From: an uncultured Polyangiaceae bacterium
Lineage (GTDB): Bacteria > Myxococcota_A > Polyangia > Palsa-1104
Length of the DNA: 59,912 bases
Assembly: GCA_964585665.1 (NCBI GenBank)
Contig: CAZPEY010000002.1
Coordinates: forward strand, 1 to 59,912
Direction: 5' to 3'
In this document: in pieces, positions 758-5,400 of the stretch
Layout: every line of letters starts with the position of its first letter
How positions within the stretch are numbered: position 1 is the first letter of the stretch
The notes under the pieces: model-generated
Seen by the model: only the letters and a program-made list of their open reading frames with translations
What the model was told of the DNA's origin: nothing
Database searches by the model: none
Program-made: the position numbers and the translations under genes

Positions 758-3394
<2,637 letters not shown>

Positions 3395-3456
3395 GGCGCT
3401 GCTTTTACCTGGAATCGGGGGTTAAAAACAGCGGCATTTTCCGACGGGCGGCGGGT

Positions 3457-3650
3457 CGGACCGGAGGTAAATCCCTGCGGGTCCGGGGGGACGGACCGGA
3501 GGTAAATCCCTGCGGGTCCGGGGGGACGGACCCGGGGGGACGGACCGGAGGTAAATCCCTGCGGGTCCGGGGGGACGGACCGGAGGTAAATCCCTGCGGG
3601 TCGGACCGGAGTTAGGTCCCGGCGGGTCAGGCGGGTCGGACCATAGGTAG
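3457..3650. repeat. Tandem array of a 35-bp REP-like imperfect-palindrome unit (CGGACCGGAGGTAAATCCCTGCGGGTCCGGGGGGA)
   Basis: Identical full copies lie at 3457-3491, 3492-3526 and 3541-3575. A 14-nt partial unit is at 3527-3540 and a truncated copy at 3576-3601. Degenerate copies are at 3602-3636 and 3637-~3650. Units abut with no spacers. Each unit has CGGACC...GGTCCG arms. Confidence 0.95.
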
Positions 3651-3703
3651 ATCGTACACAACAAACCCGCTCGCGCGCCGATAACGGCCCGGAATCGGTG
3701 AGA

Positions 3704-4180
3704 CTACCTACGGTCGTGGGCGCCGGGGGCGGGGGAAACGCGCATTACCGATAGGGCACCGAGAGTTTCCCGCGGCGAAGGCTCGAAATAGAGCCGCACG
3801 TCGTTGTCGAGTTTCAGCACGGACACGTTCCCCTGGAGGCGCTCGCGGACGAATGGTAAGCCCTCCGCCTCGAGCAGGCGCTCTACCTCCTCGATGCGGG
3901 AGTTGTCACGCAACTTCCATGGCCCGAGGGGAACTCGAGGGTGCCGTGCCATTCCACCAAAGTGCTCGCAGTGCAAGAGGAACACGCGATGGTCTTGAAA
4001 GTGCAACTCGACCACGCCGTACTTCCAGATTGCCGCGCTGGAGACATCCGATTCGATCCCCCACTGGTCCGGCTCCCCGAGCCGTTCCCTCACGAATGAG
4101 CGCGGAGCCTGGAGTCCCACCCCTACGATCTTTCCGGTTCGGAGCAGCTCAAGGTACGTCGTCGGCTCAGCTATCGCCAT
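3704..4180 (-). CDS. Hypothetical protein (158 aa), no recognisable catalytic motif. Possibly an immunity-protein-like small globular protein
   Basis: The ORF has a balanced amino-acid composition (W, K, F, H present), unlike GC-artefact frames. A GGAGAA SD lies 7 nt upstream of the ATG at 4180. It is divergent from the transposase gene. Confidence 0.6.
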   Translation of the reverse strand: MAIAEPTTYLELLRTGKIVGVGLQAPRSFVRERLGEPDQWGIESDVSSAAIWKYGVVELHFQDHRVFLLHCEHFGGMARHPRVPLGPWKLRDNSRIEEVERLLEAEGLPFVRERLQGNVSVLKLDNDVRLYFEPSPRETLGALSVMRVSPAPGAHDRR

Positions 4181-4283
4181 CTGCGTCTTCTCCAGTCAAA
4201 TCCGATTGCGATCCCGGCGCGGCGATCCGACCAGAGGCAAACAGGCACGCAACGAAACGTCGGCCGCGCCGATAACGCCGGCC

Positions 4284-5168
4284 ATGAGTAAGCCAAGGCC
4301 CGTGTATCCTGGATCAACGTACCTCATCACTCGACGGGTGAGCCAACGCATGTACTTGCTGCGGCCTTCCCGTCTCGTCGACCACATCGTGCAGTACGCC
4401 ATCGCCGTTGCGGCCAAGAAGTACGGTGTCGTGCTGCACGCCATTACGGTGATGTCGAACCACTACCATATGGTTGTCACCGACCCGCACGGGCGGCTGC
4501 CGGACTTCGAGCGTTGGTGCAACTCGATTATTGCGCGCGCGCTGAACGCGCATCACGGACGGTGGGAGAACTTCTGGGCCCCCGAGCAACCGAGCAACGT
4601 GCGACTCGTTGGCGTCGAGGACGTGCTGGGCAAGACGGTGTACACGGTCTGCAATCCGGTGGCGGCGGGGCTGGTGAGCCACGGCGCGAAGTGGCCTGGG
4701 ATTCGCCTCTTCTCGCCGGGTGTACGGAAGGTGGCACGTCCGCAGGCGTTCTTCGTTGAGGAGGGGGGACTGCCGGAAGTCGTTGCGCTCGAGTTGGTCG
4801 CGCCGCCGCTGGGGGTGAGTTCGCACGATGCGTATCGGTTGGTGCGCGAAGGCGTCGAGGGGAAGGAAGCCGAGATTCGTGCGGCGTTTCGGCGCGAGGG
4901 GCGGTCGTTTCTTGGCGCTGCGCGGGTGATGGCGCAGAAGGTGACGGACGCGCCGGCGACCATCGAGCCGCGGCGGGAAGTCTCGCCCCGCGTGGCGTGT
5001 CGCAACACGTGGCACCGCGTCGAGGTGTTGCGGCGATGCAAGGAGTTCCTTGCGGAGTATCGCGCCGCGTTCAACGCGTGGAAGCGGCGAGCAAGAGATG
5101 TGTTGTTTCCATATGGGACGTTCTTGATGTCGCAAAGGTTCGGTGCGCTGGTCGCGGCGCCGAGCTGA
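4284..5168 (+). CDS. IS200/IS605-like HUH Y1 transposase, REP-associated tyrosine transposase (RAYT)-like
   Basis: HUH motif in VMSNHYHMVV. Catalytic-Tyr motif YTVCNPVAAGLV (the Y-x2-NPV-x-AGLV pattern of PF01797-type proteins). The ATG at 4284 (MSKPRPVYPGSTYLITRR) is preferred over the track start at 4206. REP-like repeats flank the gene. Confidence 0.8.
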   Translation: MSKPRPVYPGSTYLITRRVSQRMYLLRPSRLVDHIVQYAIAVAAKKYGVVLHAITVMSNHYHMVVTDPHGRLPDFERWCNSIIARALNAHHGRWENFWAPEQPSNVRLVGVEDVLGKTVYTVCNPVAAGLVSHGAKWPGIRLFSPGVRKVARPQAFFVEEGGLPEVVALELVAPPLGVSSHDAYRLVREGVEGKEAEIRAAFRREGRSFLGAARVMAQKVTDAPATIEPRREVSPRVACRNTWHRVEVLRRCKEFLAEYRAAFNAWKRRARDVLFPYGTFLMSQRFGALVAAPS

Positions 5169-5330
5169 CCCGCGCTCAGAGTTGTTTGGCGTTTCGGGCC
5201 ATCGTCGGTCCTCGCCGCGCGTTGGCCTCTCGTCGAAATCGAGCCGCTTCTGTCCGGACACCGGACACGGTCAACCTCTGTGCCAGCTCGCAGCGTTCAA
5301 TCCGCCACGTTGCGGCTCCGATTCTATCCG

Positions 5331-5384
5331 CTACCTCCGGTCTGGTGCCGGGGGTGGCTACCTCCGGTCTGGTGCCGGGGGTGC
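5331..5384. repeat. Two tandem 27-bp repeats (CTACCTCCGGTCTGGTGCCGGGGGTGG/C), inverted relative to the 3457-3650 array core
   Basis: Copies at 5331-5357 and 5358-5384 differ only at the last base. CTACCTCCGGTC is the reverse complement of GACCGGAGGTAG. They sit between the transposase stop (5168) and the stop of the convergent kinase gene (5401). Confidence 0.9.
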
Positions 5385-5400
5385 CGGGGCGGGGTGCGCG

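Follow-up and report, generated by a model that had tools for sequence, protein, structure and literature searches.

REP and BIME repeats are dispersed, intergenic and present at high copy number; the REPs of a BIME alternate in orientation, and each REP carries a GT[AG]G sequence at the 5' foot of its hairpin. DNA gyrase of E. coli cleaves the y-REPs of BIME-2 elements, and does so independently of transcription (PMC6379681). In REPtrons, a tnpA-REP gene encoding an enzyme with the class 2 Y---NP motif is bracketed by inverted cognate repeats, and the REPs themselves occur in hundreds of dispersed copies (Nunvar 2010, PMC2817692; Ton-Hoang 2012, PMC3333891). The number of flanking repeats at REPtrons varies between strains, and 'local amplification' has been described there (PMC3333891). 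Pseudomonas genomes have REPIN clusters beside their RAYT genes as well as tandemly repeated REPIN clusters (PMC3116915), and RAYTs are usually single-copy and vertically inherited (PMC5581495).

Related enzymes are also found in species without REPs. TIRtrons consist of RAYT-like genes flanked by non-REP inverted repeats (TIRs) that occur singly, as dimers or in clusters, and their enzymes are called TIRYTs, for TIR-associated tyrosine transposases (Di Nocera, De Gregorio and Rocco 2013, PMC3733652). Most TIRYTs have been equated by Quentin et al. with TnpA-Y1 subclass 2.1, which has a DnaA_C-like HTH tail; subclass 2.3, known from Chromatiales and Alteromonadales, has insertions of 10 and 55 aa in its core (PMC6006769). 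Flanking repeats were not found for either subclass (Quentin et al. 2018, PMC6006769). Elements of this general kind are known but little studied.

Here we analyse an array of repeats next to gyrA in an uncultured Polyangiaceae bacterium. The window, meaning the whole 59,912-nt stretch of DNA under study, is contig C2 of a 6.1-Mb MAG with 708 contigs, 69% GC and 91% completeness. The initial annotation, made from the window's letters, described three perfect and several degenerate head-to-tail copies of a 35-bp REP-like unit starting about 60 bp upstream of the gyrA start codon. This description proved accurate: the copies lie at 3441-3653, the distance to the gyrA ATG (3394) is 62 nt, and the CGGACC and GGTCCG arms of the unit are exact complements. 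The accompanying remark that E. coli BIME/REP clusters are gyrase cleavage sites is also correct, for BIME-2 y-REPs. The functional proposals built on these observations fared differently, and we take them up below together with the origin of the array.

The array and the Y1 gene

The features of the locus are collected in Table 1.

Table 1. Features of the gyrA-proximal locus, in window coordinates.
Feature	Position	Strand	Description
gyrA, 878 aa	758..3394	-	outside the element; Pfam DNA_topoisoIV E=3e-164 and 6 GyrA C-terminal blades
Putative gyrA -10 hexamer TAAAAG	3402..3407	-	7 nt before the ATG (3394-3392)
Left-end tandem array	3441..3653	-	unit on the gyrA strand TCCCCCCGGACCCGCAGGGATTTACCTCCGGTCCG, core TACCTCCGGTC
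Perfect 35-mers	3457-3491, 3492-3526, 3541-3575		CGGACCGGAGGTAAATCCCTGCGGGTCCGGGGGGA
14-nt truncated unit	3527-3540		CGGACC joined to CGGGGGGA
26-nt truncated unit	3576-3601
Degenerate units	3602-3636, 3637-3653
Solo left junction module	3617..3695	-	GCCGTTATCGGCGCG ... GTTTGTTGTGT ... first core; nhmmer E=5.5e-12
Inverted core copy	3704..3715	+	CTACCTACGGTC; overlaps the ORF158 stop codon
ORF158, orphan, 158 aa	3704..4180	-	between the solo left end and Y1's own left end
Y1-proximal junction module	4211..4286	-	one degenerate core (TTTGCCTCTGGTCGG); nhmmer E=2.4e-13
TnpA-Y1 (RAYT/TIRYT-like HUH tyrosine enzyme), 293 aa	4287..5168	+
Hairpin	5251..5267	+	TGTCCGGACACCGGACA; conserved 3' non-coding part of the element
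Right-end mini-array	5330..5392	+	2 x 27-nt GCTACCTCCGGTCTGGTGCCGGGGGTG and a partial unit
PRK/cNMP gene, 708 aa	5401-7527	-	N-terminal cNMP-binding domain, C-terminal uridine-kinase/PRK domain

The array comprises three perfect 35-nt units, two truncated units and two degenerate units, and it is polar, with the perfect units on the gyrA side and the degenerate units on the ORF158 side. Its core points away from the Y1 gene, which lies 640 nt from it. The 14-nt remnant corresponds to a unit from which 21 nt between two CCGG words are missing. On the gyrA strand, TTTACCTCCGGTC forms part of the unit; GTAA occurs inside the perfect units, while GTAG appears in the distal degenerate unit alone (at 3647) and, as CTAC, in the right array. 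The 27-nt core gave four matches with at most one mismatch, against none in 100 shuffles. As single-stranded DNA the 35-nt unit has a folding energy of -8.4 kcal/mol, which is marginal (z -1.96; 7 of 200 shuffles fold as well), and the sister unit on contig C75 forms no hairpin (z +0.5); we count both of these results against our main explanation. The right-end unit folds into a strong hairpin (z -4.69; none of 200 shuffles does as well). No Rfam model matched the array at E <= 1 when positions 3000-4300 were scanned, and sigma-70 and terminator scans of the array region found nothing. A coding reading of the array was rejected, since its 80-aa and 118-aa ORFs lack a codon-position GC signature, as was a CRISPR array, since the units abut with no spacers between them.

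Minus-strand copies of the core occupy 3457-3653 and 4222-4235; plus-strand copies occupy 5330-5383, where two 27-nt units directly 3' of the Y1 gene repeat the left-array core in inverted form. Because the same core is present on opposite strands on the two sides, the Y1 gene is bracketed by outward-facing copies of one motif. At intact copies of the element a junction module of about 75 nt sits between the Y1 start codon and the array or first core. Apart from the two modules of Table 1, the junction profile, an nhmmer model built from paralogous junctions, has matches solely beside Y1 genes or on contig C99. With ORF158 and a second junction module standing between Y1 and the array, the array is formally a solo left end, and this lack of contiguity with an intact copy also counts against our main explanation. 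The hairpin 3' of the Y1 gene recurs in all paralogues and in locus L039 (C75, C248, C15, L039 and L083 were checked), with its stems kept and a variable loop (ACA, ATA, ATG or GTG); its role could be that of a terminator or of a right-end hairpin for the enzyme.

Several smaller features accompany these parts. Inverted cores and a duplicated CGCGCCGATAACG are present in the window. The inverted core copy at 3704-3715 pairs with 3639-3650 at 11 of 12 positions, and a REPIN-like long hairpin between them was discarded as no better than shuffles (z -0.2 and -1.4). An 11-nt direct repeat (CCTGGAATCGG / CCCGGAATCGG) at 3408-3418 and 3688-3698 flanks the solo junction module and the array; it may be a junction scar or have arisen by chance, and as a target duplication the repeat, CCGATTCC(A/G)GG, is compatible with chance and was not retained. 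ORF158, whose GC content by codon position is 0.70/0.43/0.76, has no match in Pfam or NCBIfam and a single homologue among 5.8 billion proteins searched. This homologue (71% identity, at 1478-1957 of locus L082) is preceded by a core-like CCACCTGGTCCG and has no Y1 gene within 3 kb. GC at third codon positions is 0.79 in Y1, 0.76 in ORF158, 0.96 in gyrA and 0.93 in the PRK/cNMP gene.

The Y1 protein has an HuH motif of the form NHYH (H59, H61) and the Y motif YTVCNP (Y119), and residues H59, H61, Y119, N123 and P124 are invariant across 33 homologues. Pfam Y1_Tnp matches it at E=2e-4 and matches 31 of the 33 homologues at E <= 0.1 (best 1.9e-6); NCBIfam REP_Tyr_transpos ('REP-associated tyrosine transposase') gives E=6.5e-13, under its curated cut-off, and many of the homologues are annotated by JGI as RayT. 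A homologue-profile search of the PDB returned E. coli TnpA-REP (4ER8, E=1.5e-4) as the best match, followed by ISDra2 TnpA. A Foldseek search with an AF2 model of Y1 (pLDDT 87.5) likewise ranked 4ER8 first (E=1.6e-7, TM 0.70 on the target), ahead of the ISDra2 and IS608 TnpA proteins, and the predicted core superimposes on 4ER8 over 141 aligned columns with an rmsd of 2.3 A. The C-terminal extension of about 150 aa had no PDB match among the significant Foldseek matches to the model, and a Bac_DnaA_C or HTH family was found in 0 of 33 members at E <= 0.1. Judged by its motifs, Y1 is class 2 (Y---NP) in the scheme of Quentin et al. (PMC6006769), and its NHYH and WE motifs together with its length would place it nearest to the long-tailed subclasses 2.1 and 2.3.

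How the locus relates to the described systems depends on which part of it is compared. The label REP-like is apt insofar as a RAYT-like Y1 gene has this unit as its cognate flanking repeat, but the repeat is low-copy, with an exact unit that is unique in the genome where REPs are dispersed, high-copy and intergenic; its units are all direct and head-to-tail rather than alternating as in a BIME, and no GT[AG]G foot stands in the canonical position. The unit resembles a REPtron in its enzyme, with 4ER8 as the closest solved fold and the REP-associated transposases as the best sequence family, in the class 2 Y---NP motif, in the inverted cognate repeats that bracket the gene and in a flanking-repeat number that differs from strain to strain; the hundreds of dispersed REPs of a REPtron, however, have no counterpart here. 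It also departs from the usual single-copy, vertical mode of RAYTs, with five diverged copies in this genome and none in 30 relatives. With TIRtrons it shares a RAYT-like Y1 gene with non-GTAG inverted flanking repeats, repeat families of low or moderate abundance that stand in dimers or clusters, several diverged copies per genome and a host without classical REPs. In contrast to TIRtrons, the TIR motif GGGGWSAS is absent from both flanks, the ends here are head-to-tail arrays, one of them separated from the gene by an extra ORF, and the HTH tail of subclass 2.1 was undetected in the 33 members. Subclass 2.3 offers the NHYH and WE motifs, a length of about 300 aa, a large C-terminal tail and several non-identical copies per genome with no canonical REP, all of which recur here, but the core of Y1 is predicted to align to 4ER8 rather than to have the insertions of subclass 2.3, and the host phylum is Myxococcota. 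Unlike subclasses 2.1 and 2.3 as reported, the Myxococcota family has evident inverted flanking motifs. Finally, the HUH/Y1 catalytic fold and the short structured DNA at the ends are shared with IS200/IS605 elements (IS608, ISDra2), which differ in having a Y---Q protein of about 150 aa (Y---NP and 293 aa here), both end hairpins on one strand (inverted ends here) and near-identical copies (65-85% nucleotide identity here); there is also no tnpB here.

Paralogues, homologues and variation between strains

In its own genome the exact 27-nt core occurs at this locus alone, by pattern search and, in agreement, by blastn-short, a count that applies to a MAG 91% complete in which repeats tend to remain unassembled. 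A 23-nt core had 0 matches in a metagenome contig collection. Looser cores are concentrated on contigs C2, C75, C99, C248, C15 and C640 and are elsewhere no commoner than a reversed-pattern control; related cores stand at about six other loci, five of them beside Y1 paralogues. The dispersed intergenic family envisaged in the initial annotation was thus not borne out by the whole-MAG search, which found the exact unit to be unique and related cores mainly at Y1 loci. A genome-wide TRF run combined with pattern scans located the sister arrays, which have the core TTACCCCCGGTC on C75, C248 and C99, GCTTCCGGTC on C15 and TTTACTTCCGG on C640. Of the non-coding-type arrays that TRF found in the genome, those whose period is >= 14 nt but no multiple of 3, a related TACYTCCGG core is present in the two strongest, and a third lies within the C75 array.

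The genome has five Y1 paralogues, 65-85% identical at the nucleotide level, each with an outward-facing, often tandemly stuttered motif on both sides. The Y1 copies of C75, C248, C15 and C99 (the last in full in L083) have YCCGGTC-core arrays on both sides, every one of these arrays except that of C640 abuts a Y1 paralogue, and the neighbours of the sister arrays are unrelated genes. The orphan array at C640:1730-1870 (about 4 x 29 nt) has CCGGARGTAAATCCC in common with that at gyrA. It is located upstream of a 208-aa gene on the minus strand, at a distance of about 50 nt, and an inverted core, GCTACCTCCAGTC, comes just past it. The contig, 2 kb long, stops 150 nt after the array, so that there may be a sixth Y1 copy at this place. 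A further array, at C449:566-653 (2.8 x 32 nt, core CTACTTCCGGAGG), may overlap the end of an opposite-strand gene. On C99 (reverse strand 1-2200), a Y1 gene truncated by the contig end has three solo junction modules within 2 kb of it; the region also contains an N gap and a duplication of about 400 nt, which may be an assembly problem.

Across the phylum, Y1 was found in 66 of 401 genomes, often as several diverged copies, and the family as a whole is found in Myxococcota with one source-named Gemmatimonadetes match. None of the 30 family- and order-level relatives has a Y1 homologue at E <= 1e-20, and the element is foreign to this lineage. Elsewhere in Myxococcota, many homologues likewise have an outward-facing, often stuttered motif on both sides. 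At 12 of 32 homologue loci in other genomes, Y1 has an exact inverted repeat (12 nt or longer) on its two flanks at conserved distances, against 0 in the reversed control and 4 in the direct control. The flanking repeats lie 40-300 nt (mostly 40-190) from the 5' end of the gene and, on the 3' side, about 200-400 nt (mostly 200-300) from its end, and the motifs at homologue loci are mutually related (AACCTGGG, ACCCCGGT, CTCTCGGTCGGG and CCTTCGGTC). The core is inverted and common to both sides of the gene, and the same architecture is seen at the paralogues and at many homologues.

The homologue motifs are often multiplied, L056 having 7 + 7 copies and L055 at least 6. Within one genus, three genomes have 2, 9 and 18 copies of the motif, some of them in successive intergenic gaps between unrelated genes; in that genus, dispersal is low-copy and REP-like. 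One locus (L077, G234:C31:1-18000) has at least 8 same-orientation copies of the cognate motif AACCTGGGAAGG in successive intergenic gaps among unrelated genes (GST, lipocalin-like, ICMT methyltransferase, DUF3604), in a region of lower GC. In Anaeromyxobacter oryzisoli (L040), a 144-aa ORF at about 1935-2367 on the minus strand has an N-terminus weakly like that of ORF158 (38% over 39 aa, pairwise E=6e-4) and is placed as ORF158 is, between a plus-strand core copy and the left end of Y1; on its other flank, that Y1 gene has an RHS toxin gene as neighbour.

Assemblies from other samples contain the same locus at 99.4-99.9% identity, and the number of full units among near-identical strains (99.4-99.7% identity) is 1, 2, 3 or 4. 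The ORF158-gyrA interval of 334 nt in L084 (ENA, another sample) has the same unit order as the window, with 2 SNPs; it measures 285 nt in L091 (3 units), 250 nt in L090 (2 units) and 215 nt in L092 (1 unit), and all four spanning assemblies have unchanged flanks, the 62 nt that adjoin gyrA among them. The right array too varies between strains, by partial units, and Logan contigs break exactly inside both arrays. Since these copy-number differences come from short-read assemblies, repeat collapse could account for part of them, which we weigh against our main explanation; counted against collapse are the SNPs by which the contigs differ. The array of the window is interrupted by the 14-nt unit and is thus assemblable. 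Array length changes in whole or partial units between near-identical strains.

The gyrA upstream region and alternative explanations

In the window and in each of the 12 family relatives compared (window 3395-3410 with L006-L016 and L030), a TA(G/A)AAN hexamer, usually with a TGn extension, stands 6-10 nt (mode 7) before the gyrA ATG, and none of these 13 loci has a Shine-Dalgarno sequence before gyrA. The Y1 gene has a similar upstream layout, with GATAAC on the plus strand of its junction module, 7 nt, and the ATG at 4287. From this pattern the gyrA promoter appears to be of the leaderless type, with transcription starting at or beside the ATG. With such a start, the array, at roughly -63 to -260, would stand before the core promoter and outside the leader, so that the suggestion that the array forms part of the gyrA promoter or leader probably does not hold, the predicted start being downstream of it. 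Nor is the array kept in relatives: both it and Y1 are absent upstream of gyrA in 12/12 family-level relatives with a readable upstream region, all of them other genera, and in 30 relatives the 1.5 kb upstream of gyrA contain neither Y1 nor ORF158 nor the PRK/cNMP gene. Because the upstream neighbours of gyrA differ among the relatives, no clean empty site can be defined; all that is kept there is the -10 element at the ATG.

The initial annotation proposed that the array is a REP/BIME-type cluster that could couple gyrase occupancy or local supercoiling to gyrA transcription; on this view it would be a site of gyrase binding or cleavage and, in the strongest form, a selected autoregulatory device. 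Its place directly upstream of the inferred core promoter is in keeping with such a role, as are the cleavage of BIME-2 y-REPs by E. coli gyrase (PMC6379681) and the inverted arms of the units, which could extrude under negative supercoiling. However, the 12 family relatives have neither the array nor a similar motif upstream of gyrA, the sister arrays flank Y1 paralogues near unrelated genes, and a unit number of 1-4 among near-identical strains argues against a tuned element. The units are moreover all direct, which is not the alternating layout of a BIME, and the preference of E. coli gyrase is sequence-specific to y-REPs. With a unit that is also unique in the genome, coupling of gyrase to gyrA is unsupported, and we regard it as very improbable. 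A role as REP-like RNA or DNA punctuation, in which hairpins end or stabilise the transcript of ORF158 and shield the promoter of gyrA against read-through, would suit the shared minus-strand orientation of ORF158, array and gyrA and the folding of the 316-nt intergenic RNA, which is better than that of shuffles (z -2.86). Yet the array has no terminator-like site and no Rfam match, and strains with a single unit exist; such punctuation would in any case be a side effect compatible with our main explanation rather than an alternative origin, and as an account of the array we think it improbable.

The two remaining alternatives concern how the repeats arose or were assembled. Length changes of whole units (35 nt) or of 49 nt (35 + 14), together with a 14-nt partial unit that a deletion at CCGG microhomology explains, are what a plain slippage minisatellite (VNTR) unrelated to the Y1 gene would produce. 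Such a minisatellite would not be expected to have its core recur inverted past the Y1 gene and in arrays at all paralogues, nor to be preceded by a family-specific junction module; core similarity is concentrated at Y1 loci, and the two strongest of the non-coding-type TRF arrays carry a related TACYTCCGG core. We hold this origin to be highly improbable. That the array is an artefact of a fragmented MAG might be suspected from its 708 contigs and from the breaks of Logan contigs inside both arrays, but L084 reproduces the full 334-nt interval with 2 SNPs and three other assemblies span it with fewer units. The locus recurs in independent assemblies of other samples and so is no artefact of this one, a possibility to which we give almost no credence.

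Origin of the array and its implications

The shared inverted core, the layout of the paralogues, the absence from relatives and the variation in unit number together indicate that the array is the left-end cluster of a REPtron/TIRtron-like element of the TIRYT class. We put the probability at roughly 0.8 that it is the stuttered left-end motif of such a unit, with its position beside gyrA incidental and no gyrase-related function. The unit would consist of a class 2 TnpA-Y1 gene bracketed by outward-facing inverted copies of a cognate core of about 12 nt. We suggest that the Y1 enzyme recognises this motif on single-stranded DNA and that units are gained and lost by repeated nicking and rejoining of an end, by slippage at CCGG microhomologies, or by both. 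The element, or a solo end of it, would have inserted into intergenic DNA immediately upstream of a gyrA promoter that is compact and of the leaderless type. The proximity of the array to gyrA is most likely incidental, and an effect on gyrA transcription is possible as an incidental side effect.

We also considered whether the junction module and core might be a putative recombination site at which Y1 joins or captures small genes, in an HUH-driven, integron-like manner, with the array as a by-product. Two modules in the same orientation enclose ORF158, on C99 a small ORF (about 150 aa, by eye) comes after a solo module, and the weakly similar small ORF of L040 occupies the same place beside Y1. 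Against this, the motif copies of G234 separate unrelated genes of mixed orientation, as ordinary REP-like repeats do, and we consider capture of this kind very doubtful.

Under the left-end explanation, an apparent regulatory repeat before an essential gene is accounted for as the footprint of a selfish Y1-transposase element. For annotation, this means that such arrays, which break short-read assemblies, are not to be taken for promoters or CRISPR-like loci. The locus adds documented between-strain copy-number variation at both ends to what is known of the poorly studied RAYT-like enzymes without classical REPs, and the Myxococcota family shows inverted flanking motifs where none were reported for the long-tailed subclasses (Quentin et al. 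2018). The stutters may mark the position at which the enzyme cuts and rejoins DNA, and would in that case point to concrete oligonucleotide substrates for it.
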